From: Candidatus Tanganyikabacteria bacterium
GTDB lineage: Bacteria > Cyanobacteriota > Sericytochromatia > S15B-MN24 > VGJW01
Assembly (NCBI GenBank): GCA_016867265.1
Contig: VGJW01000008.1
Span: 458 to 64,457 of the forward strand
Length of the DNA stretch: 64,000 nucleotides
Direction of reading: 5' to 3'
The translations under genes were made by a program, and so were the position numbers. Positions 4,640-63,095 of this stretch are shown piece by piece. Every line of letters begins with the position of its first letter. Within the stretch, counting starts at the first letter, position 1. The notes beneath the pieces are model-generated. The model saw only the letters and a list, made by a program, of their open reading frames with translations. It ran no database searches and was not told the DNA's origin.

Positions 4640-4791
4640 GGGGAGCTCCCGCCTTTGATGCCGGACAAGACCCCCTTCGGGGATTTCACCTCCGGCAAGG
4701 CTTGATTTCACGCACACTAAAAAATCCTTTGGTCCCTGGTTGGCATGACGACCGGGCAGGGTATGGTCAAAGCCATGAGGTCATATGCCTG

Positions 4792-5277
4792 ATGGTCGAT
4801 TGGCTGCACAACGCGCAGGCGTGGCTGGCGCTCGCCGCCGTACTTCTGCTTGCGGAAATCCTGACCACCACGTTCTTCCTGGCCTGCCTGGCCCTGGGGG
4901 CGCTCGCCGCCGCAGGGTCGATTGCGCTGGGCCATGCGGGACAGGAAGCGCTGGTCGCCTTTTCGGTCGCAAGCGTTCTCTCGATGCTGGCCCTGCGCCC
5001 CTTCATGCTCAAGATGCTGCGACCGGCTAGCGAGGTCCGCACGAACGCGGCAGCCATCATCGGCCAGGAAGGCCGCGTCACCGTTGCCATCCGGCCCGAC
5101 ATGGATGAAGGCCGGGTCCAGGTGGGCGGGGAGGACTGGTGGGCGGTTTCGTCGAATGGCGAACCCATCGCGGTGGACTGCCGCATCCTGGTGCTGGCGG
5201 TCGACGGCAGCAAACTGACGGTGCGCCCGTCGGATGACCCCTCGCCCCCACTCGTACCCCCCGGACAAGGAGCTTGA
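4792..5277 (+). CDS. NfeD-family membrane protein (partner of SPFH/stomatin)
   Basis: Hydrophobic N-terminal TM segments and a C-terminal OB-fold-like region (VTVAIRPDMDEGRVQVGGEDWWAV). Ends 3 bp before the SPFH gene. Start chosen at ATG 4792 inside the longer ORF 4609..5277. Confidence 0.7.
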   Translation: MVDWLHNAQAWLALAAVLLLAEILTTTFFLACLALGALAAAGSIALGHAGQEALVAFSVASVLSMLALRPFMLKMLRPASEVRTNAAAIIGQEGRVTVAIRPDMDEGRVQVGGEDWWAVSSNGEPIAVDCRILVLAVDGSKLTVRPSDDPSPPLVPPGQGA

Positions 5278-5280
5278 TTC

Positions 5281-24834: not shown

Positions 24835-24902
24835 CAGGGACCTCCTTGCGGAACGGAAAACTGGACAGGCGAGGACGGGTGCCGGGAACACGACGGCAGT
24901 CG

Positions 24903-25370
24903 TCACGGGGGGCCAAGGGCCTCCAACCGCGCCAACCACGCGGCGTGACGCACCTTGGCCTCGGCCGTGAGATGTAACTCGACGCCGGGAGCCAGGACCA
25001 CGCGCCACCAGGCCTCGCCTGCCGGCGTCGGCGGCGGGCAAGCCAGCCGCGCTTCTTCCGGTGCCTCGATGGGCCGCGGGTCCCCGTCGGGTTGCTGAAG
25101 GGTCACGCGCCCCGCCAAGACGTCCTCAAGCCATCGGGCATCGGCTTGCGCAAGGGCCCGTCCGATGGCATCGAGGGGCCAGAACTGGTCCTGAAGCCGC
25201 CGGATGGCCTGGAGCCTCAGCAGATGCTCCCGCCCATAGGCTGTCTCGGCCCCCCGGAAATCGGGGGCGTGCAAGAGACCCCGCTGGATGTAGTAGCGAA
25301 CCGTGCGGGGCGAGACACCGGCTGCATGGGCCAACCCGGCCAGCTTCAGGGTTCGGTCGGGGGCTGCCAT
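24903..25370 (-). CDS. MerR-family transcriptional regulator
   Basis: HTH LKLAGLAHAAGVSPRTVRYYIQRGLL followed by a coiled-coil dimerisation helix. GAGAGG RBS. Confidence 0.85.
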   Translation of the reverse strand: MAAPDRTLKLAGLAHAAGVSPRTVRYYIQRGLLHAPDFRGAETAYGREHLLRLQAIRRLQDQFWPLDAIGRALAQADARWLEDVLAGRVTLQQPDGDPRPIEAPEEARLACPPPTPAGEAWWRVVLAPGVELHLTAEAKVRHAAWLARLEALGPP

Positions 25371-44499: not shown

Positions 44500-44505
44500 C
44501 AGGCG

Positions 44506-47271: not shown

Positions 47272-47422
47272 ATGAATCCGCCGCGAAGGGTCGACTGCGC
47301 CCGATGGCGCAACCTTCGCGCGATCCCCGTGGTCCATGTACCGCACGCTCCCATCCTACCCCACGGCCCGGTCGCTGCCTTGCCTCCGTGGCACGCCCCG
47401 CCATCGCGGGTACGACAAGACC

Positions 47423-49576
47423 ATGCCCCCGACTCCTGCAGGCCCCATCCGTCTCTCCGCCGCGCCAACGGTACCCGCCCCATCGGGACGCATACCGGCT
47501 GGCACGGGCCCCTTGCCACCCGCTGAACTGGACCGCTGGGTCGCCGGCGGCAGCGTCAATCGTGACGGTGTTCGGGCAGAGGGCGACGGACGCTCGGGCA
47601 TCCTGTCGCTTTCGGGAACCCGGGTTGGCGACCTGATGGACAAGGTTGCCTCCCGTCTGGGCGACCAGGTGCTGTACCGCGACTACGGGGTGCGTCCCCC
47701 CAGCCTGTCACTGGGGGGTCCCGGTGGCGTCGGCTTTGGCCTCCGCGTCCGGGCCCTGCGCGACACGGACGGCAGGGTGCAGGACGATCCCCATCGACGG
47801 GAGACGAGCCGGCGGATGGCCGAGGCTGGCACACCCGTGACGTGGGCGGAGGTCCGCGGGGCCGTCGAGCCTTGGGCCGGCTACCCCTTCTCGATTCCGG
47901 CCCTGGGTGCCGGCGCGACGGTCGGCTTCACGACCGATGGCTCCGTTGCGCTGTCCGTGCTCTCGCCCCACCGCCACCCCGTCCGGCAGGCCGTGGCCGA
48001 CCTGGGCCTCCACCTCCCCTTCCGTGCCGAGGAAGCGATGGCCTACGCCGAGGGCACCGAGGTCGAGCTGCGGGGACGGGGACGCCTTGCGGTGAGTGCG
48101 GGCGCCCGCCTTTCCGACCATGTCGTGCCCTTGGCGGGGGCGTGGGACCTGGGTGTCTCGGTGGGCATCGACACCTACAGATCCCGCGATATGGAGCTGG
48201 CCCTCAAGGTCAAGCGCCTGGATGGCAACCGTGTCGCCGTCTCCGTCGAAGAGGTCACGAGCCGGGGTGAGGGCACGGCCTTGTCCGCGCGCGCCGGCCT
48301 GTCGGGACCCGTGCCGCAGCTACCCGAAAAGGGCGGCGCTGCCGGCGAACTCGCCCGCAAGTCGCTGACGACACAAGCGCAACGCTGGCTCAATGCAGAG
48401 GCCTCGATCGCCGTGTCGGAACGGACGGCTAACCGTGAGATCCAGACCTTCGTCATGGATTTGGACACGCCGGCTGGCAAGCACGCCTATGAGGCAGCCC
48501 TGGCCCTCGACCTGCGCCCCGCCCAGAAGGCGGCGGCCCAGGGCGACCCAGCCCTGCGCGCCATCACCTACAACGAGCAGGCCAAGACGGATAGGAGGGA
48601 TATCGATGCCCGCGTCGGCGGCCTGACCCTGCTCGACGACGAACGCCAGGTCGAGACCGGCCATGGCCGGCTGACCCGGCCAGAAGGCGTCATGGTCGTG
48701 GATCGTGCCGACCTGCTGCACGCCCACGAGGACATCGTCACCCGCTGGTTCTCGGGCCGCAAGCGCACGGAACGACAACTGCTCTCCGTCACGCCCGAAT
48801 CCGGGGGAACCCGGGAGACCTGGTTGCGCAGCAAGCAGGAAATCAAGGTCGATCTCAACACGACCGAAGGGGCTGTCCGCCGCTTCCTGGTGCTGGCACG
48901 ACATCTCGACCTGCGGCAGAGCGCGGACGGACTGGAGAACGACGAGAAGACGCTGGACGCCTTTGGCAAGTCGGAGCGGCGCGTCGAGGCCTATGTCACG
49001 GCCGAGGGCCTTGAGCGGCTCTATCAAGCCGCCCCCGACCGGATTCGCGAAGCCTTTGCCACGGCCTACGAAGAGATCGACCGCCCGTGGGATCAACCGG
49101 TGCTCTTCGACAGTCAGAAGGCCTCGATCTGGCGTCGGACCCCTTGGCTCGCCACGGCGCACGCGGACCACAGCGAGGTCATGGCCCTGCTGCGGCAAGG
49201 TCCCCAGCCCAATGGCCCCGGCAACGAGGGGCCAACGCCGGACCAGCGTTACGCGAACCTGACGGGCAGGCCACTCTGGCAGGATGCCGAGGCATGGCGC
49301 GAGAGCGAACGCCTGGTGGATCTGCTTGGCAAGATGCGCGAGGCGGGACCCGCCGAGCGGGCCCGGCTGCTGGCCGGTCTTGCCAAGGAAATGGACACGG
49401 ACCTGGCTCGGGAGCTGTCGACGATGGCCCGGCTTGCCGGCCCCGAGACCGTCATCGTGCCCGAGATGCGGCTGTCCGGACCCAAGGCGCCCGATCTGCT
49501 GTACCGTCGTGGCGACGCGCCCCGGGATCCGCGCAAGGAAATCGACGCCGCCATCCGCGGCCACCGCACGCCCTGA
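47423..49576 (+). CDS. large hypothetical protein
   Basis: 717 aa from ATG 47423 within ORF 47336..49576. Divergent from the Cys-cluster gene. No motif recognised. Confidence 0.45.
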   Translation: MPPTPAGPIRLSAAPTVPAPSGRIPAGTGPLPPAELDRWVAGGSVNRDGVRAEGDGRSGILSLSGTRVGDLMDKVASRLGDQVLYRDYGVRPPSLSLGGPGGVGFGLRVRALRDTDGRVQDDPHRRETSRRMAEAGTPVTWAEVRGAVEPWAGYPFSIPALGAGATVGFTTDGSVALSVLSPHRHPVRQAVADLGLHLPFRAEEAMAYAEGTEVELRGRGRLAVSAGARLSDHVVPLAGAWDLGVSVGIDTYRSRDMELALKVKRLDGNRVAVSVEEVTSRGEGTALSARAGLSGPVPQLPEKGGAAGELARKSLTTQAQRWLNAEASIAVSERTANREIQTFVMDLDTPAGKHAYEAALALDLRPAQKAAAQGDPALRAITYNEQAKTDRRDIDARVGGLTLLDDERQVETGHGRLTRPEGVMVVDRADLLHAHEDIVTRWFSGRKRTERQLLSVTPESGGTRETWLRSKQEIKVDLNTTEGAVRRFLVLARHLDLRQSADGLENDEKTLDAFGKSERRVEAYVTAEGLERLYQAAPDRIREAFATAYEEIDRPWDQPVLFDSQKASIWRRTPWLATAHADHSEVMALLRQGPQPNGPGNEGPTPDQRYANLTGRPLWQDAEAWRESERLVDLLGKMREAGPAERARLLAGLAKEMDTDLARELSTMARLAGPETVIVPEMRLSGPKAPDLLYRRGDAPRDPRKEIDAAIRGHRTP

Positions 49577-49591
49577 TCAGGGCGTCGTCGC

Positions 49592-51844
49592 CTACTCGGG
49601 AATCACCACCCGGCACGTCCGGACCTCGCCTTGGGCCGTCCGCCAGATGGCACGCACGCCCGAGGCATCTTGGGCCAAGCGGGTTGCATTGCCTTCGTCC
49701 GCCAATGGCTGGACCTGCGACACGACCAGCGTGAGACTGCCGGCATCGACCCGCTTGGCCCGGACCCACACGACAACGGGACGATACCCTTTGCCATCCG
49801 GGCGTCGGATGGTCGCACCGACCAGCAGGGCCTCCCCGAAGGGCACGATGGAGGGTGTGTGCTGGATGGGATCGACCAAGGCATCACCGACGCCGATGAG
49901 CGGAATCGGTCCGGGCAAATCACCGAAGCGCATGGACTCCGAGGCCTGTGGCGCATCTGGCTCGAGGTCGGCCGGCAGGCCTCCCGGATGCGCGAAGCCA
50001 CGGACATGGAGCTGGTATTCGCCGGAACCGGGCGCCACGGAAACCAGCCAGGCACCGCCGTCCGGCCTGGGCGCCATCGCCGGCAGCCGAGGCCCCGAGG
50101 TCACGCCGAGCACGTTGGTAGCCACCACGCTACCCGCGGCATCGACGAGGGCACGCACGATCATGCGCTGGCCGCTACCGGCCGAGGCAGCGGTGCCATA
50201 GGCCCACAGCAGATAGCCCGCCCCCCAGGGCACAGCCGCGATACGCTCGCTCGAAGGGGCATCGAAGTTCATGCCCGAGCCGTCCGAGAAGCCGAAGCCG
50301 CCGCTGCCAAGAAAGGCCAAGCGTCCCCCGGCCGTCTCGAAGGCATGGGTACGCAGGCGCCACGAGAGCCCCGCGCGTGCAAGGCAGACAAGCAGGACCC
50401 GCGTGCCCCTCACCATCACGGTACCCAGGCGCAGATCCTCTCCCTCGCGCGAGATTCTTACGGTCCGATCCTCGACACCCGTTGGTTGACGGCCATCCGG
50501 ATCAAGCAGGCCGATGGTCACGGAACCGGTTGCCACGGACTCGGGCGTCCTTGTTGCGAGGACCACATAGGGACCGACACGCGCGAGGGCCATGGCCTGT
50601 TCGCCCGGGGACGTGTCGATGACATAGGCGACGGTCTGACCCTGACGTCCATCTGCGGCTATCGGCTGCAAGGCAATCGTCTGAGCGCCGCTGAAGGCCA
50701 GCGGCTCCCAAGCCGCAAGCCAACCCTCGGCGGTATCGACGAGCATGACACCCCGATCCGCTTGGCTGCTTCCGGTAGCCATCGACCACAAGGGGGGAGC
50801 CGCGAAGCCGACCCGCAGGTCGCCCGTCGCCACGAGACGACCCGAAGTCACGGTCAGGAGACCATCACCCGAGGTCACAGGCCGCCAGACACCATCCGGG
50901 GAGGCACCCTCGCCAGTCAACTCCACCCGTGCCGCCTCCGATGGCAGCCATTCTGGGGAGCCGCTCCCGACCACACCCGTGGGGGCGAATGGAAACTCCC
51001 CGCCCGACCACCCGTAGAGGCGCCCGTCGATGGGCCAAGGCCGCATGTCACCCGTCGCCACGAAGCCTACGGAGGACAAGGGCCGAAAAGACAATGCCTG
51101 CAGATTCGGCACGCCGTCGACCCGGACCGTCACCGTGCCCTCGGTCGTACCCTCGGGCACCGTCACCTCGAGGGCATCCGTGGCAGCCTTGGCGACCTGC
51201 TCTGCGGCACCCGTGAAGGACACGCTCACGGAACGACTGGCCGTGACGGGAAACGAGCCCTCGAGGACGAGCTTGGCTCCCGGCCCCGCAACAGCCGGGC
51301 GCAAGCGCGTCAGGACAGGCCGGAAGAGCGGCTCGAGCAACAAGCTGACGGGTGTCCTTACATGCGGTGCGGTCGTGATCCCTTCAGTTCGCCCCCTGGC
51401 CACCACCACGCCATCCCCGTCGCGCGCCTCGGCTTCGAGGACCAGATTGGTTCCCGTCCGGGCCGACATGGTGGCCTCGGCAACGGCCACGCCCGGCTGG
51501 CGAAGCAGCAAGGCCCGGCCACGCTCGACACCGGCCGAGGTCGAAAGCACCAGATCGAGTCGATCCGTGCTGCGCGGCAACAGTTGCACCGCACGGCCGG
51601 ACTCGGGCCAGCGGACGCGAACCAGCAGTTCGCCTTCGGAGGCGGACAGCCAGGCAGCTTCGGGCTGCGCGGCCTCATCCGGGACGACGCCCCCTGCTAC
51701 GGCAGCCTTGGTGTCCACGGATCCCGGTTGGGCAACGGCGGACGCGGCCCGGCTGGCCTGGCTGGCCAGAGGCGCAGTGGGCAGGGCTTGGCAGGCCGCC
51801 AGAAGCAGCACGGGCAGGAAGGCGCGCGAAGTACGGAGCATCAC
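49592..51844 (-). CDS. large secreted lipoprotein (IPT/beta-rich)
   Basis: Lipobox VLLLAACQA. Start overlaps the stop of the upstream paralog (GTGATG). Beta-rich repeats. Confidence 0.55.
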   Translation of the reverse strand: MMLRTSRAFLPVLLLAACQALPTAPLASQASRAASAVAQPGSVDTKAAVAGGVVPDEAAQPEAAWLSASEGELLVRVRWPESGRAVQLLPRSTDRLDLVLSTSAGVERGRALLLRQPGVAVAEATMSARTGTNLVLEAEARDGDGVVVARGRTEGITTAPHVRTPVSLLLEPLFRPVLTRLRPAVAGPGAKLVLEGSFPVTASRSVSVSFTGAAEQVAKAATDALEVTVPEGTTEGTVTVRVDGVPNLQALSFRPLSSVGFVATGDMRPWPIDGRLYGWSGGEFPFAPTGVVGSGSPEWLPSEAARVELTGEGASPDGVWRPVTSGDGLLTVTSGRLVATGDLRVGFAAPPLWSMATGSSQADRGVMLVDTAEGWLAAWEPLAFSGAQTIALQPIAADGRQGQTVAYVIDTSPGEQAMALARVGPYVVLATRTPESVATGSVTIGLLDPDGRQPTGVEDRTVRISREGEDLRLGTVMVRGTRVLLVCLARAGLSWRLRTHAFETAGGRLAFLGSGGFGFSDGSGMNFDAPSSERIAAVPWGAGYLLWAYGTAASAGSGQRMIVRALVDAAGSVVATNVLGVTSGPRLPAMAPRPDGGAWLVSVAPGSGEYQLHVRGFAHPGGLPADLEPDAPQASESMRFGDLPGPIPLIGVGDALVDPIQHTPSIVPFGEALLVGATIRRPDGKGYRPVVVWVRAKRVDAGSLTLVVSQVQPLADEGNATRLAQDASGVRAIWRTAQGEVRTCRVVIPE

Positions 51845-53445
51845 TGGATCTCCACCACCAATTCACCTTGGCTGCGCACCTCGACCGTCAGGTCGACGGC
51901 ACGATCCGGGTCGGCAAGCGGACGCGCCCGGACCCGTGCCGTCGTGTCGTAAGTGCCGACCATCGCCTCGACACGCCCCGTCCCGTCCACACGGACCGGG
52001 CCGGCCAGCACTTCCCAGGACCATGGGCCGTCGTACGAAGAACCATCCGCGTGACGGGCCACGGGCTTGAGGCGCGTCGCGACGGACAGGCCGGGCAGAG
52101 GCGTGGCCTCGGCGACAGGCAAGGGCGCGAGCACGGGCGACAGACCCGGCAGGCGCTCGACCGTGGCGATGGACGGCACCACCTCGATCGCTGCCACGGC
52201 ATCCAGTTCGCCCCGGCGCGCCCGGAAACGCACGGTGCCTGCAGCGAGTCCCTGAACCAAGCCCCCCGTGAGGGAGGCGGACCCCGAGTCAGGTAGGACT
52301 TGGATGCCCGACGGACCGGCTTGGATGGTCGCAAACGTGCCACCGCGCGAGGAGCCCTGGAACAGGATGCTGCGGGTGGCCCCCACCGCGAGAGGCCACG
52401 GCCCCACGTGGGACCAAGTCGCCGTCGACGAGACAGGACGAGCCAATTCAAGGCGCAGTCCGTCGATGATGTCGAGTCTGCGCGCCGGTCCCGTCAGGCT
52501 GCCGATCCGAGCGGCGACCTCGCCGGACCCCGCACCAAGCGGCACGACAAAAGCCATGGATTCATCTGCCAACTCGAGGCCGGGAGCAACCACGCCGTTG
52601 ATCAGGACCTCGGCACGCGCGCCACGAGACGCCCCGAAGGAAAGGCCCGTTGCCTGGACCCGCTCCCCGATGACGGCCGGGTTGGGGGACAAGGTCCGGA
52701 TTTCCGGCACCGGCGTATCCAGGACCATCCCCGTGACGGTGGTGGTCTCGCCGGGCAGCACCGCCAGGCGCTCGGAGACGGCACGGCCCATGTCCGGATG
52801 GATCGCGACGAGCCGGTACAAACCCTCGGGTACGTTGCCGATACTGAACGAGCCATCCTCCGCGGCAGCAGCCAGGAAAGTCGTGCCCGGCAAGAATACC
52901 GTCGTGCCGAGAAAGTCCCTGACTACGGGCGAAATGCTGCGTATCCGTCCCGACAAGGTACCGGTGGGCCCCAGCTTCAGGGAGATGCCGGACATGACGG
53001 GCTGCGCCAGCAGAATCGCCTTGGTCACCGCGTTCCGTTCGGCCAGCAGGGTGTAACGGGCGCCTTTCTGGATCACGGGCAGGCGGAAACGGCCGAGGTC
53101 GTCCGTGAGGACCTCGCCCACGGCCGTGACGCCACCCGTACTCGCCTCGGACAGGCGGCGACCTGCACCGCCCGGCGATACCAGAGCCGCCGAGTCGTTG
53201 GACACGAGGGCCGCAGCATCGTTGGACACGAGGTAGCACTTCACGGCCACACCCGCGGCAACCCGCCCCGCTTGGTCGACCACCACGCCGCTGAAGTCCG
53301 TGGCTGCCGCCTGCAGGGTGTCCGCGGGCAGGGTCGATGCACCGGTCGCAGGGCGCTTGGCCGTGACGGTGTTCGGCCGGCAAGCGACCAGACTGGCGAC
53401 CAGCAGCAACGCTGCTGGCCCCCAAGCGAAGGCCCGGCGCGACAT
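51841..53445 (-). CDS. lipoprotein with CarbopepD_reg-like domain carrying 'LVSNDAAALVSNDSAALVS' repeats, plus IPT-like domains
   Basis: Lipobox [12 protein letters not shown]. Repeat then RR..SEA..TDDLGRFRLPVIQKGARYTLLAER (CarbopepD_reg-like). Second CarbopepD-like segment AEDGSFSIGNVPEGLYRL. Confidence 0.6.
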   Translation of the reverse strand: MSRRAFAWGPAALLLVASLVACRPNTVTAKRPATGASTLPADTLQAAATDFSGVVVDQAGRVAAGVAVKCYLVSNDAAALVSNDSAALVSPGGAGRRLSEASTGGVTAVGEVLTDDLGRFRLPVIQKGARYTLLAERNAVTKAILLAQPVMSGISLKLGPTGTLSGRIRSISPVVRDFLGTTVFLPGTTFLAAAAEDGSFSIGNVPEGLYRLVAIHPDMGRAVSERLAVLPGETTTVTGMVLDTPVPEIRTLSPNPAVIGERVQATGLSFGASRGARAEVLINGVVAPGLELADESMAFVVPLGAGSGEVAARIGSLTGPARRLDIIDGLRLELARPVSSTATWSHVGPWPLAVGATRSILFQGSSRGGTFATIQAGPSGIQVLPDSGSASLTGGLVQGLAAGTVRFRARRGELDAVAAIEVVPSIATVERLPGLSPVLAPLPVAEATPLPGLSVATRLKPVARHADGSSYDGPWSWEVLAGPVRVDGTGRVEAMVGTYDTTARVRARPLADPDRAVDLTVEVRSQGELVVEIQ

Positions 53446-53482
53446 GTCCTTTACTTACCCACCTGGACGACCCGGAAGCGGA

Positions 53483-55498
53483 TCAGCCCCGATCGCGCGG
53501 CGGACGCCCGAAGCCCTGCCCGGGCTTGTTGCCGTAGGACTTTCGGGCAGGCGGACGATCCGGACCGGACCAACCTTGGCCGCCATCGCGATTACCGTCC
53601 CGGGGACGACGCGACGGAGGCGCGCTGCCGTCCTCCCGATAGGCAGGACGCGGTGGGCGACTGCCACCTTCTTCACGATAGGCAGGACGGGGAGGACGAC
53701 CACCACCCTCTTCACGGTAGGCCTTGCGAGGCGGTCGCGCGCCGCCTTCCTCGTCGCGATAGTCCTGGCGCGGAGCCCGACCGGGGCGCGGGCCATCACC
53801 CAGGACAGCCTGGACCTGGGCCGCGACCTCTTGCTTGATGTCGATCGTGCTGTGGTCCTGATAGAGGCGAATCGAACCGATCTCGGCGCTCGTGATGCCG
53901 GACCGCTGGCAGATGTACCGCACCAGCCAGCCCGGACGGACGGCCTGGGCCTTGCCACGCGGCACGCTGACGCGAACCATGCCGGCCTCGGGGGGACCGT
54001 CCTCGTCCTTGGTCCGGAACGGACGACGCGCCTTCGGAGACGACGGGCCCTCGTCCGACTCACGGAAAGACCGGGTGGCCCTGGGCGGACGCGTCTCGGC
54101 CGACACCTGCCGAGTCCGGGCCGGCGGCGGGGCGGGCACGTCATAGCCGGATGCCAGGATGGCCGTGGCCTCCTGCAGGTCCTGCAGCAAGGCCGCGACC
54201 AACTGGACCGGGGCAAGATTGCCCAGCAGGCGATCCGCAAATACCTCGAGGCCACCGAAGTCGGCCGATTCGCAGCGACGGGCCAGATCTTCCATGACCC
54301 GATCCTGCACGCGCTGACGGACGTCCTCGCCAGTCGGAACCGCACGCGTCTCGAAGGTGATGCCGGCCTCACCGGCAAGGCGACGGACCCGTCCGCGATC
54401 CTTGGGCGTGACCAGATTGAGCACGACGCCCTCGCGACCGGCACGGCCTGTGCGACCGCTGCGATGGACATAGGTCTCCCCCGACCCTGGCATGTCGTAG
54501 TTGACGACCAGCGTGACGCCGCGGACATCGATACCCCGGGCGGCGACGTCCGTCGCGACAAGGATCGGCACCTGCCGGGTGCGGAAGGCCTCGAGGGTGC
54601 GGGTCCGGACAGCCTGAGGCAGATCGCCGTTCAGGTAGGCGGCCTTGAATCCATCGGCCACCAAGCGGCGCGTGAGGGTCTCGGTCTCGAGCTTGGTGTG
54701 GCAGAAGACCATGGTCAGTTCGGGGGGCTCGATGTTGAAGAGATTCGCAAGCACCTCGAAGCGGCGATCCGGGAAGGTCTCGATGACACGGTGGGTCAGC
54801 GTCGTGGCGGCTTCCAAGCCGCTCGAGAGCGCGAGATGCTCGGGCTTGCGCAGGTGGCGCCGGGCGATGGCCTCGACGGCATCCGGCATGGTCGCGGAGA
54901 ACAGCAGGGTCTGGCGGGACTCGGGCATCCCCGTCAGAATCTTCTCGAGGTCCTCGGCAAAACCCATGTCGAGCATCTCGTCGGCCTCGTCGAGCACGAC
55001 GGCCACGCAACCCGACAGGTCGAGCGAGCCACGCTCGAGATGGTCGACGAGACGACCGGGGGTGCCCACGACCAACTCGGCACCGCTGCGCAGCGCGCGG
55101 AACTGATCCCCGTAGGGCGTGCCGCCCGTCAGGATGGCGACGCGACGGTCCATGGGCCGGGCTACGCGGACGGCCACGCGACCGACCTGCATCGCCAGCT
55201 CGCGGGTCGGCGTCACAACCAGCATCAGCGGACCGGGCGGCGGCACCTCGGGGTCACGGGCGCCCAGGCGCTCCATGAGCGGCAAAAGGAAAGCCAAGGT
55301 CTTGCCGGTACCGGTGCGGGACTGGACGAGCAGGTCCCGGCCCTCGCGCGCCGGGGCGAAGGCCCGCAGCTGAACTTCGGTGGGATCGACGAGCTGCATG
55401 TGGCCCAGCGCGTCCAGCAAGGGCTGGGAGATGCCGAGCGAGATGAAGCCGGTGGGGACGACAGGTGTGGCCGTGACAGCCGGTGTCTCAAGATTCAT
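53483..55498 (-). CDS. deaD: DEAD-box ATP-dependent RNA helicase with DbpA RNA-binding domain and RG-rich tail
   Basis: Motifs: Q; I (SRTGTGKT); Ia (PTRELA); II (DEAD in VVLDEADEMLD); III (SAT); VI (HRSGRTGRAGR). DbpA-like C-terminus. Tail with 3x RPPR.AYREEGG. Confidence 0.95.
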   Translation of the reverse strand: MNLETPAVTATPVVPTGFISLGISQPLLDALGHMQLVDPTEVQLRAFAPAREGRDLLVQSRTGTGKTLAFLLPLMERLGARDPEVPPPGPLMLVVTPTRELAMQVGRVAVRVARPMDRRVAILTGGTPYGDQFRALRSGAELVVGTPGRLVDHLERGSLDLSGCVAVVLDEADEMLDMGFAEDLEKILTGMPESRQTLLFSATMPDAVEAIARRHLRKPEHLALSSGLEAATTLTHRVIETFPDRRFEVLANLFNIEPPELTMVFCHTKLETETLTRRLVADGFKAAYLNGDLPQAVRTRTLEAFRTRQVPILVATDVAARGIDVRGVTLVVNYDMPGSGETYVHRSGRTGRAGREGVVLNLVTPKDRGRVRRLAGEAGITFETRAVPTGEDVRQRVQDRVMEDLARRCESADFGGLEVFADRLLGNLAPVQLVAALLQDLQEATAILASGYDVPAPPPARTRQVSAETRPPRATRSFRESDEGPSSPKARRPFRTKDEDGPPEAGMVRVSVPRGKAQAVRPGWLVRYICQRSGITSAEIGSIRLYQDHSTIDIKQEVAAQVQAVLGDGPRPGRAPRQDYRDEEGGARPPRKAYREEGGGRPPRPAYREEGGSRPPRPAYREDGSAPPSRRPRDGNRDGGQGWSGPDRPPARKSYGNKPGQGFGRPPRDRG
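53560..53730 (-). repeat. imperfect ~39-bp tandem coding repeats (RG-rich helicase tail)
   Basis: Plus-strand units such as cgataggcaggacgcggtgggcgactgccaccttcttcacgataggcaggacggggaggacgaccaccaccctcttcacggtaggc. Confidence 0.5.
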
Positions 55499-55623
55499 GT
55501 TGTAAAGGGCACCCCGACAAGTCGGAACAGAAAAAAGGGAATAGGTGGGGGCCTGATAGAGACTCCATCAGCATTATCCGGGAATCAGGGCGATCCGGCC
55601 ACTCCGCCCGAGTTGCCACAGGC

Positions 55624-57822
55624 CTACCAGTCGACCCCGTAGAGAATGGCGCCGCCGTCCTCGGTGCCCACCATCAACTGCTTGCCGTTGCCCGTGGGCG
55701 TGCCGTCGGTGATGAATCGGAGAGCATTGACGACCGTCCCCCCGGGGCGAAAGTCGAGGACGATCCGGCCGTCTGCCATGCTGCCGAGACGCACGACACC
55801 GTCGCTCCCCCCGTAGGCCAGCCACATGCCGTCGGGAGAGAGTGCCGCAGCGCGTATCTCGCCACCCTTCACCTTCGGAATAGAGAATTTCCGCAATTCG
55901 ACGCCCGACGCCACGTCATAGATCCTAATTTTGCCATCCGAGCCGCCTACGGCCACCCGGGAGGCATCCCCCGACAAGGAAATCGACGTGATGGCTCCTG
56001 TCTGAAAGGGCGAGGTGAAGACCTCGGTCCCGTCCAGGGCGTCCACGACGCGGGCCAAGAAGTCATCCGCCCCGCAAGCGTAGCGCCCGCCGCGAGCATC
56101 GGCCGACCGGACCCAGCCAAAGGTGGCGATCGACCGCAGGACGCTCCCTGTCGTCATGTCGTACAGGGCCGCCCGGTTGTCGCTGCCGCTGACCCAGAGG
56201 GTGTCCGACTTGGGCCCCGGCCACGCCGAGTAGAGCTGGGCCTGAACCGAAAGACTGGCAATGGGTGTCACGCTGACGGGCGGGACATTGCCCGAGACCC
56301 GACGCTGGTCGATGACCCCCTCACGCGTGGCCGATGCCACCATGTAGCCCGATGCGTCCGACAAGGCCGTTATCGAGACCCCATAAACGGAACCGCCGGG
56401 TCTCCAGGTCACCATCGGGTTGCCTGAAATCACGTCCCCGACCGTGACGGCGCCGCCGTCGTAACCCAGGACGAACAGTTGGCCGTCCTCGGAGAAGTCG
56501 ACGGCCTTGATGCGGTCCCCCTGCGCATAGAAAGCCTTGGTGAACAGCCGGGGATCCGGACGAGGCGTCGGAACGGGGCTGGGGACCGGCGTCGGCGCCA
56601 CGGTCGGCGTCGGGGCAGGCATGGGCGTCGGTGCGAGAGTCGGCGTGGGACTGGGCACGGGCGAAGGGGTCGGCGTCTCGACGGGCAGGGGCACTTGGGA
56701 TTCGCCCGGAATCGGCGTCGATTCGGCATCGGGAGTCGGCGTCGGAACGGGCGAAGGCAGGACGGTAGGCTGGCTCGTGGGGGTAACAGAGGGCCCCGGG
56801 GTAGGCACGGGTGAAGGAGAGGGCGCCACCGTCGCCTGCGGCGCTCCGGGCGTTGGTGTGGGCTGGACCACGACCGGCCCGGTCGACGGAGTCGAGACGG
56901 GTGCAGGCGTGACGGTGCCCGTGGGTGACGGCGTGGCGGAATGCGTGGCGAGGGGCGCGAGCGTCGCAACCGGGACGGGCGACGCGCCGACACGCCAAGG
57001 CTGTCCCTTGGGTGCCAAGCGCACGAGCGGCAGTTCGCGCGCCACACCCGGAACGACCACGACGTCACGGTCGCCGAACGGCCTGGCCGCACCCAGATCC
57101 GGATGCCAAAGGACGACGTCGTGGGCCCCCGAGGGAAGTTCGGGAACCTCCCACGTCCCGTCCGCAGCGACCCGAGCCACGTACGGGCTGCCTGCGATAA
57201 GGATCTCGACGCCCGGCGGGGGGAAACCTTGTCCCCCGGCCTCGGGCATCAGGACGCGACCGCGCAAGGTCGCGACGGGCCGGACACTCAGGCGTACGTC
57301 CGCCGTGGCGACCTCGGCACCGACCACCAGCGGCCCCCCCCAACCCTTGTCCGTCCGGCTGCGCAGTGCCTCGAGATTGTAACGGCCGGCAGGCAAGCGA
57401 AGCCTGAAGCGCCCATCCGCATCCGTCAGCGCGTCCGCCGACAAGGTACGCCTCCCTGCTCCGGATAGGGCCGCAGCCTGGTTCCCGACCAACGCGGCCG
57501 AATCATTGGCGATGAGACCGGCGGCATAGTTGCCGACGAGTGCGGCCACATCGTTGGCCACGAGCCGGGCCTTGGACTCGGGAGGCAATTCGCCTGCCGG
57601 CCAGGCACGCACTTGCACGGCCACAAGCGGCAGGCCCTCAGGATCGACCACCTGGCCCACAAGCTCGAAACGAGAAAGGGCATCCGGCGTCGCCACCGTG
57701 ACGCCGGACCGGCCCAGATCAGCCACGCTCCCGGAGAAGCCCGTCCGACAGCCGGCAAGCAGGGTCACCGCGGCAAGCAGCCTGAGTACTGCCGCCCCGA
57801 AGGCCTTGGCGCCCGTAGCCAT
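55624..57822 (-). CDS. lipoprotein: CarbopepD_reg-like domain with LVANDVAALVGN repeats, Pro/Thr linker, WD40 beta-propeller
   Basis: ATG 57822 with AGGA RBS (MATGAKAF...LLAGCRTGF lipobox); the upstream 774 nt of ORF ..58596 is judged non-coding. Repeat LVANDVAALVGNYAAGLIANDSAALVGNQAAAL precedes the RR..TDADGRFRLRLPAGRYNLEAL motif. ~150-aa PT-rich linker. C-terminal WD40 blades. Confidence 0.75.
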   Translation of the reverse strand: MATGAKAFGAAVLRLLAAVTLLAGCRTGFSGSVADLGRSGVTVATPDALSRFELVGQVVDPEGLPLVAVQVRAWPAGELPPESKARLVANDVAALVGNYAAGLIANDSAALVGNQAAALSGAGRRTLSADALTDADGRFRLRLPAGRYNLEALRSRTDKGWGGPLVVGAEVATADVRLSVRPVATLRGRVLMPEAGGQGFPPPGVEILIAGSPYVARVAADGTWEVPELPSGAHDVVLWHPDLGAARPFGDRDVVVVPGVARELPLVRLAPKGQPWRVGASPVPVATLAPLATHSATPSPTGTVTPAPVSTPSTGPVVVQPTPTPGAPQATVAPSPSPVPTPGPSVTPTSQPTVLPSPVPTPTPDAESTPIPGESQVPLPVETPTPSPVPSPTPTLAPTPMPAPTPTVAPTPVPSPVPTPRPDPRLFTKAFYAQGDRIKAVDFSEDGQLFVLGYDGGAVTVGDVISGNPMVTWRPGGSVYGVSITALSDASGYMVASATREGVIDQRRVSGNVPPVSVTPIASLSVQAQLYSAWPGPKSDTLWVSGSDNRAALYDMTTGSVLRSIATFGWVRSADARGGRYACGADDFLARVVDALDGTEVFTSPFQTGAITSISLSGDASRVAVGGSDGKIRIYDVASGVELRKFSIPKVKGGEIRAAALSPDGMWLAYGGSDGVVRLGSMADGRIVLDFRPGGTVVNALRFITDGTPTGNGKQLMVGTEDGGAILYGVDW
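56555..57005 (-). repeat. coding low-complexity Pro/Thr/Ser/Val-rich linker repeats
   Basis: Translates to PTPTPGAPQATVAPSPSPVPTPGPSVTPTSQPTVLPSPVPTPTPD...PTPMPAPTPTVAPTPVPSPVPTPRP. Plus strand shows reiterated ggcgtcgg/gggcacgg units. Confidence 0.6.
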
Positions 57823-58649
57823 CTTGAATCCTGTCGCCTGTTCACCCGTCGGGGAGCCAAGCAAGCCCTGTGCTCCCCATACGGATAATGACGCAGGTTG
57901 CGGGAGAAGTCGTTCTATTTCACATTCGCTTGATGGGCACTTAGTTCCACGGCCCTTGGCGCAACGCGAGCGAATCTTCCAGCGCGTCGCTTCGGCCGTC
58001 GAAGGAGAAGGCCTCCGTAACGGCTTGGCGCGTCGGTCCGGAACACCCGCCCTTGCTGCATGAGCGCGGGCGATTGCGCACGCGGACAACCCAGGCAAGC
58101 CCGCGATCCGGCAGGTCAGGCCCGGCATGACACCCAACTCGCCTTCCCAGTCGATGAGTCCGTCGGGCTGTCGCAGCAGGGAAACACTGACGGTCGACGT
58201 CCCCGATGGCGGCTGGATGGGGACGAGGACCGTGCCCGAGAACGGCTTGTCGGCCAAGGGCACGGACAACGGGACATTCGCCCGGTCCTCGATGTCCTGG
58301 CCGCTGCCGAGCGTAGTGGAGGCGGTGGCAGGCGTTCCCGAGATGACGACGGGCGGACTCGTCGTGGCAAGGGCCTCGGCCGTAATCTGCACCCGGGCCC
58401 CGGGTAACAGGCCACCCCACCCTCCCGTCGACACGCCCGCGGATGCCGCGGGCAAGCCAGCGCCGGACCATCGCCTGCTGGCGACGTCCGGCACCGACCT
58501 CCACGCGCACCAAGACGGCACCTTGGCCCCGGCCACCCTCGATGCCGTCGGGCGGTACTGCGGAGAGGCAGCCCGTAAGGCAGCCACCCACCGCAAGGAT
58601 CAGACCCGCAAGTCTGCGACCTGATGCCAGGGCCATGTCGCGCAACCCG

Positions 58650-59216
58650 TCAGAGCGCGCCGCCCGTGACCGGGCCATCCGTCACGAAGGCACCGTCAAG
58701 AGGCGTCAGCGAGAGCCCCGCCTGGCCCGCGAACACGACATCGTCGAGCGGCACGTCCACGGCCAGCACCCGCGTATCCTCGAGGTCGTTGGAGCCCAGG
58801 AAGTCGAAGGGCACCACGATCGGCCGTTGGCTGTTGATGTGTTGCTGAGCGGCCGTGAAGGCCTGCACCGTCAGGCGATAGGCCCGCTGGCCCGTCAGGT
58901 TCCCGAAGACCGCCTGGCTTTGGCCCTGGGCCGGCTGCACCCCGACGCTGGCCTGATTCAGCCAAGTAGGCACACCGCCCGGCCCATCGGGCCCCCGCTG
59001 GTCGAGGATGACCTCGAAACGGGCCACGTCGGACGGTACCCAGCGATGCCTTATGGCTTGCAAGGCGCGTGTGGCATCGGCACCGACCGAGAGATCGACG
59101 ACGACACGCCGCTCAGGGTTGCGTTCGTCCGTACCCGGAGGCACGGGCTGTCCGGGACTGCCCGCGCAGCCCGCCATCAGAAGCCACAAGACCCATCCCC
59201 GCTTGCCCACGGCCAT
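58650..59216 (-). CDS. small lipoprotein, unknown function
   Basis: ATG 59216 with GGAGGG RBS. Lipobox WLLMAGCAGS. The longer ORF to 59390 is trimmed. Confidence 0.5.
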   Translation of the reverse strand: MAVGKRGWVLWLLMAGCAGSPGQPVPPGTDERNPERRVVVDLSVGADATRALQAIRHRWVPSDVARFEVILDQRGPDGPGGVPTWLNQASVGVQPAQGQSQAVFGNLTGQRAYRLTVQAFTAAQQHINSQRPIVVPFDFLGSNDLEDTRVLAVDVPLDDVVFAGQAGLSLTPLDGAFVTDGPVTGGAL

Positions 59217-59349
59217 GACGTGACCCTCCATCCGGACGCTCGTCCGATAGGGTTCACACTGCCGCCCGCCCGACCAGCCGACACCGGCAGGATGCACGAC
59301 GAGGCCATGTCCCGCCCGACAATCATCCCGGGGCCCCTCCCCCGGACCA

Positions 59350-61546
59350 TCAGTCCCAGATGACGTCGAAGGCCAGCAGACCCTCTCCATCCGTTGCCTC
59401 GTAGAGGCGGTCGCCGTTGTCGGTCGCCCTGACGCAGGTCGTGAAGCGCAATCCGGTGACCTTCACGGAGCCCGTCCAGGGCGTCGCGACGATCGCGCCA
59501 TCGGCGACCCGAGCCACCGTCACCCGGTTGTCGAGGCCGCCCAAAGCCACATATCGGCCATCGGGTGACATCGCCAAGGCCAGGATCGCTGCATCCGCCC
59601 GCCACTCCCTCAGCGTGATGCCGTCCGGAACCGTGAGCACGACCACCTTGCCCTCACGATCGCCAACGACGACACGTGCTGCATCGCCGGAAAGGGCCAA
59701 CGCGTCGACGCCGCGACCCACGGGCAGTGACGTCATGATCTCGCGGCCATCCGCAATATCCACGACCCGCAGCAGGAGGTCTTCCCCGCCATAGGCTAGG
59801 CGCGTGATCTGGGCGTCCATGGCGTACAGGGCACCGAACGCCGGGAGCGAGACCAAGGTGCCAGTTTGCCAACTGCGCAGCTGCGCCAGCCCATCCGAGC
59901 CGATGCGCCAGTAGCGCGTTTCGTTGGCGAAGCCGAGGATACCCGTGACGGCAACCTGGGCGTCCCCGACGGATTCGGAGGAAACAGCCGTCGACACGTC
60001 CCCCTCACCAAGACCGGAGAGGGTCCGGAGCGCCACGGTCCCCTGGGAGGTACCCGTCAGGACCTGATACCCGGGATCGAGCAACCGACTGGTGAGCCAG
60101 ATGCTGCGGACAGGCTGACCGGCATCCCAGGTGTGGGCCAGGCCGCCATCATCCCCCCTGTATATCCGGACGAGGCCATCTGCCCTCCGGGCCAGCGCGA
60201 TGGCCTTGCGGTCGCCGGAAACATCCAGAACGTCAAACGGATCCCCCTGGGCAAGAGTCATGCGGTAGGTGAACCGCAGGCCGGGCGCTGGTGTGGGTGT
60301 TAGTGCAGGTGTTGGTGCGGGTGTCGGCGAGGGAGAGGGCGTCGGTGAGGGCGCAGGAGTGGGCGTGGACACAGGCACCGCGGATGGAGACGGGCTCGGG
60401 GTCACCGCCGGCAAGGTCGTCTCCGGCGCCGGCGTAAGTTGGACGTCCCCTGGCGTCGTGGTCGGCGCAGGCAAGGTGGCCGAAGGAGTCGGAGCGGGTG
60501 ATGGCGTGACCGGAGCCGGGCTTGCCGGAAAAGAAGACGAAGGACCCGGTGACGGCGTGACCGGAGTCGACGATGGCGACATCGAGGGCGAGGGGGAAGA
60601 TACAGGCTCTGGCGTCGTCCCCGGCTCGGTTGACGGCGCGGCTCGGGTCGAGGCGACAGGCCTGGGGGATGGACTCAGCAAGACCCAAGGCTTCCCCTTG
60701 GAGGCAAGGGCGAGCGACGGCACCTCGACGAGCCCCCCGGGGCCCACCGACAGAAATACGTTTGCGTAGGGACGCACCACCCCAAGTCCGGGATGCCAGA
60801 CCAGAAGGTCATGTGCGCCGGCCGGCACCCCGTCCAGCCGCCACGAGCCATCCGCCGCGACCTTGGTCCCGTAGGGAGAGCCCGCAAGCAGAACCTCCGC
60901 GTCAGGAAGCACCTCGGAGAGAGCGATTGCATCGGGCAGCAGGAGACGTCCACGGAGCGTGCCGACAGGCTGCAGACGCAACGCAAGGCTCAGGGACCCG
61001 GCGCTCCCATCGGCGCGTATGTCACGCAACCAGGCCTTGACAGCCGAGCTCCGGACAACCTCGAGGTTGTAGGTGCCTTGGGGTACGTCAAGGGCGAAGC
61101 GACCCTCGGCATCCGTCAAGGCACGATGGAGCAGCGCGGAGGGCACCCTGCGTGAGGCAGCACCGTTCGCCACCAAGCCTGCCGCGTCCTGACCCACGAG
61201 CCCTGCCGCGTAATCGGCGATGAGCGAAGCCACATCGTTGGCGACCAACCCTGCGCCAAAGCCGTCCGGCAGCATGCCGACAGGAAAGGTCCGCACCAGG
61301 ATGCCCGCGACCGGCTTGCCGGCCTCATCCAGAACCCGCCCCCCCCAAGGACACGCGTGTCGACTCCGGAACAACCGGCCCCGCTCCGGGCGTCGGTGCT
61401 GCGGGGGCAGGGCCAGCCGTGGCGGCTCCCGTCGAGGATCCGGTTCCGGTAAGGCCTGAGCCAAAGCCTGCCCGGCAACCTGCAGCAAGAACGGCCAGCA
61501 ACAGAATCGGGCACGCCCAGCCCATGCCCCAGCGGACCGTAACCAT
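59350..61546 (-). pseudogene. paralog of the CarbopepD_reg/WD40 lipoprotein, frameshifted at a G8 homopolymer between signal peptide and mature domain
   Basis: Signal peptide/lipobox MVTVRWGMGWACPILLLAVLAAGCRAGF is in the frame of ORF 61325..61546. The mature protein (GRVLDEAGKPVAGILVRTFP...LVANDVASLIADYAAGLVGQDAAGLVANGAAS...WD40) is in the frame of ORF 59350..61887. The frames meet at 61339-61346 (CCCCCCCC on plus = G8 coding strand). G7 would give ...RVSLGGRVLDEAG, which aligns with the intact paralog. Confidence 0.6.
60285..60720 (-). repeat. coding low-complexity Pro/Thr/Ser-rich linker repeats (paralog)
   Basis: Translates to TPEPVSSPSPSMSPSSTPVTPSPGPSSSFPASPAPVTPSPAPTPSATLPAPTTTPG...PTPAPSPTPSPSPTPAPTPALTPTPAP. 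Plus-strand ggtgtgggtgttagtgcaggtgttggtgcgggtgtcggcgaggg. Confidence 0.6.
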
Positions 61547-61606
61547 ACCTTGGCCATACTACCCGCCCAAGGGCCGCATGGCCCCACCATCGGGCATGAT
61601 GACGCC

Positions 61607-62041
61607 ATGACGTTGCAAGCTTGGTCCCTCGTGCTGGTGACGACCCTGCTGTGGGGCTTGGTACCGCTATTCGACAAACTGGCGTTGACCCGGGCCGCCG
61701 ACAGCCCGCTTGCCGGCGTGGCCGTGCGTCTCGCCACCGCGGCCCTCATCGGCCTGCCCTTGTTGTTCGCCGCATCGGGCGGTACGGGTGCTTTCCGCAG
61801 GATTCCGCCGACGGCATGGGGTTGGTTTGCGGCCAGTGGCCTGGCCTCGCTGGTTATCGCCCAGATCGCCTGGTATGCCCTGCTCAAGGACGCTCAGGTC
61901 TCGAAGACCTTCCCATTCATGTTTGCGGCCGCTCCCGTGGTGACGCTCCTGCTCGGGGTGCTGGTCCTGCACGAGCCCCTGACGCTGCGCCAGGTGATCG
62001 GCGGGGTGCTGGTCGTGCTCGGGGGGGCGCTGCTGCTTTAG
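61607..62041 (+). CDS. EamA-like (DMT superfamily) small 4-TM transporter
   Basis: Four hydrophobic helices with EamA-type spacing (SLVLVTTLLWGLVPLF ... VIGGVLVVLGGALLL). Start ATG 61607 within ORF 61550..62041. Confidence 0.55.
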   Translation: MTLQAWSLVLVTTLLWGLVPLFDKLALTRAADSPLAGVAVRLATAALIGLPLLFAASGGTGAFRRIPPTAWGWFAASGLASLVIAQIAWYALLKDAQVSKTFPFMFAAAPVVTLLLGVLVLHEPLTLRQVIGGVLVVLGGALLL

Positions 62042-62085: not shown

Positions 62086-62739
62086 ATGAAGATATCCGTG
62101 TCGCACGATAAGGAGTCCGGAAGGGTCAGGCGCTTCGCCCTCGCCGCCGTCCTCGCCGTCCCGGCTTCGGCCGTGGCGATGCCCCCTGCCGTGGCCTCGA
62201 CCATGGCCGTGCTGGACCTGCGGCAGGACCAGACCCTGGTGTCGGGTGGCCTGTATACCTTCGCGGTGGACCGCACCCTGGATGATCGCACCGCGCTGGG
62301 ACTCGCCGTGGCCCCCCTGCTGGGCGTGGCGGGCGTGCGCTGGACGCGACGCCTGGCAGGCGGGGCCGACGAACCCTCCTGGGGCTTCAGCCTGCACGTG
62401 GGCACCACCCCCCCGGACTTCACGGGCATCCCGAAGACCGAGGCCTATGGCTCAGTGCTCGCGCCGCAGACGGGCCTGGGCTACCTCACGGACACCTATG
62501 CAGGGTGGACAGCCGTGGTCCATCCCCAACTCGTGGGCTCCCTGCCCCTCGGCCCGCTGCGCCTGCGCCTCGCCGTCGGGCCCGCCGCCCTGCTGAGCAG
62601 CCTGTCCCATCAGGGAGGCCAGAAAGTTCGCGGCGACCTGCTGCTGGTCATCAACCCGGAAGTGGCCCTGCGCATCCTGCCGCAGGCCGAACTGACGCTG
62701 CTGGGCCAGGGCCTCGTCGGCTTGAGGGCCCTGCTGTGA
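62086..62739 (+). CDS. hypothetical secreted protein
   Basis: Signal peptide MKISVSHDKESGRVRRFALAAVLAVPASAVAMP. Beta-rich. Start could equally be ATG 62071. Confidence 0.45.
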   Translation: MKISVSHDKESGRVRRFALAAVLAVPASAVAMPPAVASTMAVLDLRQDQTLVSGGLYTFAVDRTLDDRTALGLAVAPLLGVAGVRWTRRLAGGADEPSWGFSLHVGTTPPDFTGIPKTEAYGSVLAPQTGLGYLTDTYAGWTAVVHPQLVGSLPLGPLRLRLAVGPAALLSSLSHQGGQKVRGDLLLVINPEVALRILPQAELTLLGQGLVGLRALL

Positions 62740-63095
62740 AACAGCCGCGCCTCGCCATGCCTTCCCGCTTCTTCCTGATGCTGGCGCTTGCGGGCTGCAT
62801 CAACATCCCCCTCGCCTCGCAGACCTGGGTCATTCGCCCCGACGAGGGCTGCGCGCCAGCCAGCGGCCCCGCACGCAGGCGCTTCCTGCCCGAGTGCCCC
62901 GAGCCCACGCCCAGCCCTCAGCCCCCCTCCGGACCGACAGCCACGCCTGCACCTGGCCCGGCCGATTCGCCCACGCCGTCTCCGACGCCGGAACCAAGCG
63001 CGTCGCCTGCGCCCTCGCCTACGCCCATCCCGACCGAGTCACCCACGCCCGTACCGCTGCTGCAGCCATCGGACCCGCCCCTGATCGAGGTCTGA
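62736..63095 (+). CDS. Pro-rich small lipoprotein
   Basis: GTG 62736 overlaps the upstream TGA (GTGA); ATG 62757 is an alternative start. Lipobox LMLALAGCIN. C-terminal PTPSPQPPSGPTATPAPGPADSPTPSPTPEPSASPAPSPTPIPTESPTPVP. Confidence 0.5.
   Translation: MKQPRLAMPSRFFLMLALAGCINIPLASQTWVIRPDEGCAPASGPARRRFLPECPEPTPSPQPPSGPTATPAPGPADSPTPSPTPEPSASPAPSPTPIPTESPTPVPLLQPSDPPLIEV

Follow-up and report, generated by a model that had tools for sequence, protein, structure and literature searches.

A tandem octapeptide array within a two-sandwich module of predicted Sericytochromatia lipoproteins, and its occurrence in secreted proteins of other phyla

A 64,000-nucleotide stretch from a Candidatus Tanganyikabacteria genome (Cyanobacteriota; Sericytochromatia; contig VGJW01000008.1 of assembly GCA_016867265.1), referred to throughout and at its full length as the window, contains three paralogous genes, here named A, B and C, whose predicted lipoproteins carry a short tandem array of eight-residue units, the octapeptide array, inside a carboxypeptidase-regulatory-like (CarboxypepD_reg) beta-sandwich. 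An earlier note on this DNA had described three paralogous lipoprotein genes on the minus strand, and open reading frames (ORFs) together with lipoboxes confirmed them: gene A (51841-53445, 534 residues), gene B (55624-57822, 732 residues) and gene C (59350-61546), a paralog of B interrupted by a +1 frameshift. Every gene of the 49.6-61.9 kb region lies on the minus strand, as do all features of A, B and C given below, and the order in the direction of transcription is gene C, a small lipoprotein of 188 residues, gene B, a DEAD-box/DbpA helicase, gene A and a lipoprotein of 750 residues.

The products of A, B and C are predicted to be lipoproteins on the basis of a signal peptide and lipobox, the cysteine of which reaches a conservation of 90% or more across the alignment of the family. 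The signal peptide of A (53380-53445, ending in ..LVASLVAC) carries the lipobox LVAC with Cys22, that of B (57748-57822, ..TLLAGC) carries LAGC with Cys25, and that of C (61475-61546, ..AVLAAGC), which is read in the upstream frame starting at 61546, carries AAGC with Cys24. It is followed by an N-terminal module (52711-53298 in A, 57004-57675 in B and 60694-61344 in C) that matches CarboxypepD_reg (PF13620) with 34.5, 43.0 and 52.3 bits in A, B and C, respectively, all above the gathering threshold of 32.3 bits, with two matching stretches in each of B and C. The earlier note had recognized this fold correctly but had counted one sandwich; each protein contains two, and the array interrupts only the first. 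Its placement of the repeat in a loop of the sandwich was upheld by alignment of the three modules, in which the array lies between G.V.D..G......V.V.., corresponding to strands 1 and 2, and RR...TD..GRF.L...Y.L, thereby replacing the hairpin after strand 2. The sequence following the array, to which attention had also been drawn, is invariant among the three paralogs. The first sandwich contains another set of conserved residues, an Asn and a Glu in Y-N-L-E-A and an invariant Lys in K-[AG]-W (residues 100, 102 and 110 of the B module), with conservation of 90% or higher for the Glu in alignment A2 and for the Asn in A3 and A5, which are larger alignments. To our knowledge, this N-x-E...K set does not belong to the generic CarboxypepD_reg (PF13620) signature, and it may constitute a conserved surface patch or binding site.

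Behind the module of gene B, a Pro/Thr-rich linker of 151 residues (56551-57003; P50, T27) leads to a WD40-type beta-propeller (55627-56550) that scores 48 bits against PF00400 (cut-off 27) and 56 bits against ANAPC4_WD40 (cut-off 22.9). Gene C has a Pro/Ser/Thr-rich linker of 138 residues (60280-60693; P45, S25, T23) and a propeller (59353-60279) that has diverged further than that of B; PF00400 alone gives 16.1 bits against the cut-off of 27, while propeller families are matched at E 1e-8 and the domain aligns over its full length with the propeller of B. The linkers of about 150 residues and the propellers that had been attributed to the two longer proteins are, thus, present. In gene A, no Pfam family was matched behind the module at E<=0.1, and its C-terminal region looks, by eye, like a TIG domain followed by Ig-like domains; TIG is the commonest C-terminal head in the family. 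Because B and C are only 37% identical across their whole length, they are old paralogs, and all three genes descend as such from a single lipoprotein family. When the 64 kb were translated in six frames, the family profile matched only the ORFs of A, B and C, and A was matched only by the profile built from alignment A2.

The array consists of three units in gene A (53161-53232), four units and a degenerate fifth in gene B (57445-57564) and four units in gene C (61153-61248). The unit is eight residues long, L-[IV]-small-N-x-small-small-small, and is present in 3 to 4.5 copies per protein, which replaces the earlier description of a unit of about 11 residues in two or three copies. The arrays read LVSNDAAA, LVSNDSAA, LVSPGGAG in A; LVANDVAA, LVGNYAAG, LIANDSAA, LVGNQAAA, LSGAG in B; and LVANDVAS, LIADYAAG, LVGQDAAG, LVANGAAS in C, each followed directly by RR. 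A six-frame scan of the whole window found the motif at these three places only, and none of 20000 residue shuffles of each module contained two or more consecutive units. At the nucleotide level, the 24-nucleotide units share an identity of only 0.48-0.61 and use different synonymous codons, and Tandem Repeats Finder reported no DNA repeat at the three arrays; the periodicity is therefore maintained at the protein level. On the same grounds, recent DNA slippage and antigenic variation through copy number were ruled out as its origin.

Between gene B and its ortholog in another Sericytochromatia metagenome-assembled genome (MAG; L104), the array is 70% and the sandwiches are 68% identical, while about half of the identical residues are specified by different codons and synonymous change within the array is as high as elsewhere. 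The array of gene A is 46% conserved versus 74% for its sandwich, and copy number differs between orthologs, with three units in A and five in its L046 ortholog. This A-like gene (L046, 321-2591) has a duplicated N-terminal module, the first copy having one degenerate unit (LVSADEGSPGG) and the second having the five units.

The exact A and B proteins were found on Lake Tanganyika metagenome contigs from JGI and in Logan assemblies, B on 15 public contigs, and the database proteins closest to them bear the annotation Candidatus Sericytochromatia or Candidatus Tanganyikabacteria; the window thus derives from a genome of this lineage from Lake Tanganyika. The order of B, the helicase and A is kept in the MAG represented by L104, and a third MAG (L038, L046) carries an A-like and a B/C-like gene on one contig. 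An exhaustive hidden Markov model search with the profile of the three modules against 1.84 billion representative proteins returned 17519 matches at E<=1e-3, most of which are generic multi-domain CarboxypepD_reg proteins; the family counts that follow rest on the best 150 of these. The whole module was matched in one stretch in 48 of the 150, and all 48 contain the unit at least once in the same loop, with two to six consecutive units in 40. The outcome that would have refuted the earlier note, absence of the unit from paralogs elsewhere, was therefore not observed: the unit is present in every full-module homolog among these 150 and occurs in many other genomes. A lipobox lies within the first 60 residues of 40 of the 48, while none of the 100 giant proteins in which CarboxypepD_reg was matched in several stretches contains the unit. 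Typical family units are LISNNGGG, LIGNSGAG, LVSNSSAG, LIGNDAGS, VISNDGAT and LITDNGAG, and the family-wide consensus is L-[IV]-[SAGT]-N-[DN]-[GA]-[GA]-[SG], in one to six copies within the first sandwich.

Domain scans of 44 family members found PF13620 in 43 and a variety of heads: TIG in 18, NHL in 13, SGL and Big_2 in eight each, FGE-sulfatase in five, PhoX in four and WD40 in two to three. This is a modular lipoprotein family, in which a constant N-terminal module of about 215 residues, comprising a putatively lipidated Cys and two sandwiches, is combined with interchangeable heads. The family is expanded in some genomes, with at least about 20 array-bearing loci in the species-representative MAG RYN_339 and at least about 10 in LC083, among the matches listed. 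Families of surface lipoproteins with a constant N-terminus and a variable head exist elsewhere, and the present family resembles them in its constant anchoring module, swapped heads, many paralogs per genome and pseudogenes. The likeness is one of organization, no sequence relationship to such a family having been tested or found; it differs from them in its lineage, Sericytochromatia, and in a module built from CarboxypepD_reg domains and an octapeptide array.

AlphaFold2 modeling of the B module, using an alignment of 28 sequences, predicted both sandwiches with a predicted local distance difference test score (pLDDT) above 90, whereas the array (module residues 40-75) remained below 50. 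The same result was obtained for P0087, a family member with five perfect VISNDGAT units, and neither model contains secondary structure for the array. Structure prediction of the repeat-bearing domain, which the earlier note had advised, was therefore informative for the sandwiches and yielded no fold for the repeat. Both domains are modeled as transthyretin-like seven-stranded beta-sandwiches. Both score above the PF13620 threshold, are modeled with confidence and carry the TD..G.F...Y.L core of the Pfam family, in common with the tandem CarboxypepD_reg or transthyretin-like domains (PF13620, PF13715) of large bacterial surface proteins, from which they differ by the array in the hairpin after strand 2 of the first domain, a feature absent from the 100 multi-domain proteins considered above.

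In a Foldseek search of the PDB, the best match of the two-sandwich module was GBS52 (3phs; E 1.5e-6), followed by SpaA (5f44), BcpA (3rkp) and the TIE protein (6fwv), with a cohesin X-module also among the matches. E-values for these tandem stalk domains ranged from 1.5e-6 to 1e-3, with identities of about 10-15% and TM-scores of 0.25-0.35, the latter being low because the angle between the domains differs. In the matched pilins and adhesins, as proposed for the present family, such domains form a stalk presenting a distal functional part. The Gram-positive pilin and adhesin stalks are anchored by a sortase signal, in contrast to the lipobox of the present family, and no evidence was found for isopeptide bonds.

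The unit extends well beyond this family. A DNA pattern back-translated from two and a half units was searched in one genome per GTDB species and matched at least 116 stretches, a minority of which are wrong-frame noise. Reading the matches listed in frame gave at least 134 arrays with 3-11 units each (584 units together). The percentages at positions 1 to 8, where the search pattern itself partly determines positions 1-4 and 7, are as follows: L72; I67, V29; S33, A28, G25, T14; N87; D43, N30; G61, A24; G54, A40; and S38, G34. Most of the true arrays among these matches are in Sericytochromatia and occur in two topologies, either inside the first sandwich, as in the window, or directly after the lipobox, followed by YR and a sandwich. 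True cyanobacteria (Oscillatoriaceae and Stenomitos) also contain arrays. In Verrucomicrobiota, LITNDGGS arrays follow a poly-Pro stretch within very large secreted proteins; in Acidobacteriota and Chloroflexota, arrays lie at the extreme C-termini of RHS/YD-repeat toxins; and in Solirubrobacterales they are likewise C-terminal, including in the isolates Svornostia abyssi J379 and Paraconexibacter sp. AEG42_29. Further arrays were found in Armatimonadota, Planctomycetota (Tepidisphaeraceae) and Proteobacteria (Hyphomicrobiales, Xanthobacteraceae), and one resides in a filamentous-haemagglutinin-like protein. A signal peptide, a lipobox or an RHS core was present in all of the carriers inspected. 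Independent arrays of the octapeptide are, in sum, a feature of secreted proteins across many phyla. The occurrence of the unit outside this lineage and outside this domain context runs counter to the possibility, raised in the earlier note, of lineage-specific low complexity.

In the RHS/YD-repeat toxins of Acidobacteriota, Terriglobia and Chloroflexota (L019, L029 and L072), the arrays stand at the end of the protein, after the DPxGL core. The units of L029 are LISQDGGG, and in L072 LITNDGGS units are followed by at least eight copies of a second eight-residue repeat, IVASGAGN. A scan of 2.9 million viral contigs revealed no true array, its eight matches being an acidic giant-virus repeat of another kind or spurious small ORFs, and carriage of the unit by phages, for instance in tail fibres, was rejected on this basis.

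The absence of a named domain for the repeat, as the earlier note had surmised, was borne out. Seven arrays searched against Pfam and NCBIfam at E<=10 returned only noise, and none matched HemolysinCabind, Gp5_C or the pentapeptide, hexapeptide, ice-nucleation or Chlam_PMP families. Searches of the PDB by sequence and with a profile of 28 arrays gave nothing significant, the best matches (E 0.38-0.43) being a stretch of the EspP passenger beta-helix and LptA, and the motif strings were absent, in this sense, from 8 million full-text papers. The octapeptide, thus, appears to be un-named and without a structure within the libraries searched. Identity with the RTX repeat was rejected on account of the period of eight and the lack of a PF00353 match by the seven arrays at E<=10, and identity with the repeat of T4 gp5 and VgrG was rejected for want of a PF06715 match and because comparison with T4 gp5 showed agreement at positions 1, 3 and 4 only.

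The frameshift in gene C that had been noted earlier was located to a homopolymer. The frame carrying the lipobox starts at 61546 and stops at 61325-61327, and the remainder is read in the next frame, the switch occurring in a minus-strand run of eight G residues (61339-61346; C8 in plus-strand terms). Replacing G8 with G7 would restore the frame (..VSLGGRVLDE..), such that the product would read ...TRVSLGGRVLDEAGKP... and agree with the family consensus; past the shift, the gene is otherwise intact over 664 codons. Over the whole of gene C, G8 included, the window is 100% identical to L121 and L122, two Logan assemblies that are independent of it and come from different sequencing runs. Because three consensus sequences, therefore, share the same tract length, the frameshift belongs to the population consensus and did not arise by accident in assembly. 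A homopolymeric tract in the 5' coding region sets the reading frame of gene C, as in phase-variable contingency genes, and the gene would at present be switched off by a one-base expansion of the tract; it would be a pseudogene of recent origin or a gene in a reversible off state. The broader idea that G/C homopolymers mark a set of contingency genes was not supported: the window holds no excess of runs of eight G or C (five observed versus about 15 expected from composition), and gene B has an in-frame run of eight at 57334-57341.

A paralog elsewhere in the family also carries disruptions. In L038 (Sericytochromatia isolate 123469), a gene at 4337-5305, adjacent to an intact paralog, contains two in-frame stops, TGA and TAA, at positions where the family has Gly and Tyr in a ..VAGSPYVA.. 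motif. It represents a second, independent inactivation in the family, whose paralogs thus also undergo decay.

The genes interspersed with A, B and C are, as had been described, a helicase and a small lipoprotein. The DEAD-box RNA helicase (53483-55498, minus strand; DEAD, Helicase_C and DbpA domains in Pfam) sits among the lipoprotein genes between A and B, yet it is not a member of the family. Its C-terminal tail includes a 39-nucleotide tandem repeat of 2.2 copies (53637-53722) encoding Arg/Pro/Gly-rich units (..RPPRPAYREEGG..). The small lipoprotein between B and C (58650-59216, minus strand; ..LLMAGC) has no family match in Pfam or NCBIfam and is called as a gene of 188 residues in the public contigs L121-L123 as well. 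The ORF of the 750-residue lipoprotein (49592-51844, minus strand; ..LLLAAC), which matches no Pfam family, overlaps at its start with the stop of gene A (51841). The two genes are likely co-transcribed, and the gene order around them is kept in L001-L004. This ORF is one of four successive large ORFs (888, 946, 746 and 750 residues; 41833-51844), none of which matches any Pfam family, and gene calls corresponding to them (888, 920 or 808, 746 and 749 residues) recur in other Lake Tanganyika assemblies.

The neighborhood remains rich in lipoproteins to the right, where a plus-strand gene (62505-63095) encodes a further lipobox protein (..LMLALAGC..) with a Pro/Thr/Ser-rich tail. Past the right edge of the window, contig L121 (1-3632) encodes another CarboxypepD_reg protein, a Kelch protein and an FGE-sulfatase protein. 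Elsewhere in the window, a plus-strand gene (28461-33182) encodes a protein of 1573 residues combining DUF4011, an AAA_11/AAA_12 helicase, an MTES_1575 restriction-endonuclease-like domain and DUF3320, and a D12-class adenine methyltransferase and a VIT-VWA protein are encoded a few kb away on the minus strand (21371-22417 and 22414-25041). A scan of the window with Rfam identified no RNA family.

The joint reading that we favor, at slightly better than even confidence, is that the family comprises stalk-and-head surface lipoproteins in which the array acts as an association-dependent beta element for self-association or adhesion, with gene C off. The proteins would be binding or enzymatic lipoproteins anchored in the envelope or at the surface, both localization and lipidation being predicted. 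From the lipid anchor, a rigid two-sandwich stalk would lead to a distal head, which in B and C the long Pro/Thr spacer would push outwards. The array would be a beta-forming element with two beta-branched or hydrophobic residues, an Asn possibly placed in a ladder and a Gly/Ala-rich turn; stacked beta-turn-beta units with Asn ladders typically have such a composition. It would have no fold as an isolated monomer and would gain structure by pairing with other arrays or with a partner, such as an envelope component, and this pairing would cluster or attach the lipoproteins. With two to five units, an array falls short of a free-standing solenoid, and a single sheet could not bury both hydrophobic positions; folding on association therefore offers the best reading of the array, and it would explain the absent fold in monomer predictions, although confidence in this step itself is modest. 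From the strict phase of the units, their conservation in the B ortholog and their reuse in unrelated extracellular proteins, we infer an ordered role for the array rather than that of a spacer.

Several considerations weigh against this proposal. Low AlphaFold2 confidence is equally expected of a disordered loop. In the window, the units are rich in Ala and have no D-G-G turn of the canonical kind, and they may behave differently from the canonical unit; the logo of that unit derives from a sample selected by pattern. Lipidation and localization of A, B and C are predictions, any ligands of the heads are putative, and no structure, named family or paper in Pfam, NCBIfam, the PDB or the full-text literature backs any fold for the unit.

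A rival explanation would make the array a flexible, intrinsically disordered Gly/Ala/Asn-rich loop or spacer in an exposed hairpin with no specific role. This would fit the pLDDT below 50 and lack of secondary structure of the array in two family members, the variation from one to six copies within the family and between orthologs (three units in A versus five in L046), and the weaker conservation of the gene A array relative to its sandwich (46% versus 74%). However, spacers do not keep a strict eight-residue phase with Leu at 72%, Ile or Val at 96% and Asn at 87%; the Pro/Thr linkers of the same proteins show what a spacer looks like here; the B array equals the folded domain in conservation; and the unit recurs in unrelated protein contexts of several phyla, so that a disordered loop is considered unlikely. 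A second rival is a Ca2+-dependent beta-roll like that of RTX proteins with one residue less per unit, in which N-D-G-G turns would bind Ca2+ and folding would follow export. Both repeats form short tandem units in secreted proteins, and the canonical xLIxNDGG, like GGxGxDxUx (PF00353), combines a Gly-rich turn containing Asn or Asp with a short hydrophobic strand. RTX blocks are unfolded without Ca2+, a property that would suit the lack of a fold in the AlphaFold2 monomers, and all carriers are predicted to be extracellular. Nevertheless, the period is 8 instead of 9, HemolysinCabind was unmatched at E<=10 and RtxA_C reached only E 2.6-4.6, Asp is not conserved in the window's copies, units such as LVGNYAAG and LVGNQAAA have neither Asp nor Gly-Gly, and three to four units amount to fewer than two turns of a roll, which together make an RTX-like roll quite improbable.

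Still less probable, and in our estimation very doubtful, is a three-chain beta-helix built like the VxG[ND]xxxx octapeptides of T4 gp5 and VgrG (PF06715), through which the lipoproteins would trimerize. The two repeats have in common a period of eight and a hydrophobic-x-small-N/D core (hydrophobic position 1, small position 3 and N/D position 4), as seen in the C-terminal T4 gp5 units NGTILVKG and NVTIIVEG, and an obligate trimer would account for the failed monomer prediction. The remaining positions disagree, with K/E and T/I/L in gp5 versus I/V and G/A here at positions 2 and 6-8; Gp5_C was unmatched in Pfam; the unit is absent from phage contigs, without a true array among the 2.9 million viral contigs; and a loop insertion of three to four units would need to run into and back out of a prism estimated at about 19 Å in length.

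The proteins join known domain classes as new members, and the domains that surround the array are ordinary; what is new is their combination with it and the repeat itself. The unit is far more widespread than the window alone shows; like the family signature, it is undescribed in the libraries searched, and it offers a new class of repeat, not a new kind of biological system. A wider claim, put forward tentatively and at somewhat less than even confidence, is that L-[IV]-small-N-[DN]-G-G-[SG] defines an undescribed, widespread class of extracellular structural repeat that adopts a new beta-architecture only upon self-association or the binding of a ligand or ion and that serves, in at least eight phyla, in clustering, attaching or delivering secreted proteins, including the C-termini of RHS toxins. 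If so, the octapeptide would be comparable in standing to the RTX or pentapeptide repeats, and the Sericytochromatia lipoproteins would be its most compact, domain-embedded form. A structure would tell whether it is a new solenoid- or zipper-like fold beyond the reach of AlphaFold2 prediction. The octapeptide is often met in secreted proteins of bacteria from soil and freshwater, polymorphic toxins among them. A profile of the unit would annotate many proteins. Members of the lipoprotein family, at present annotated as hypothetical or as generic carboxypeptidase-regulatory-like proteins, gain a signature and the logic of a constant stalk with a variable head, which would help to annotate a sister lineage of the cyanobacteria that is still poorly known.

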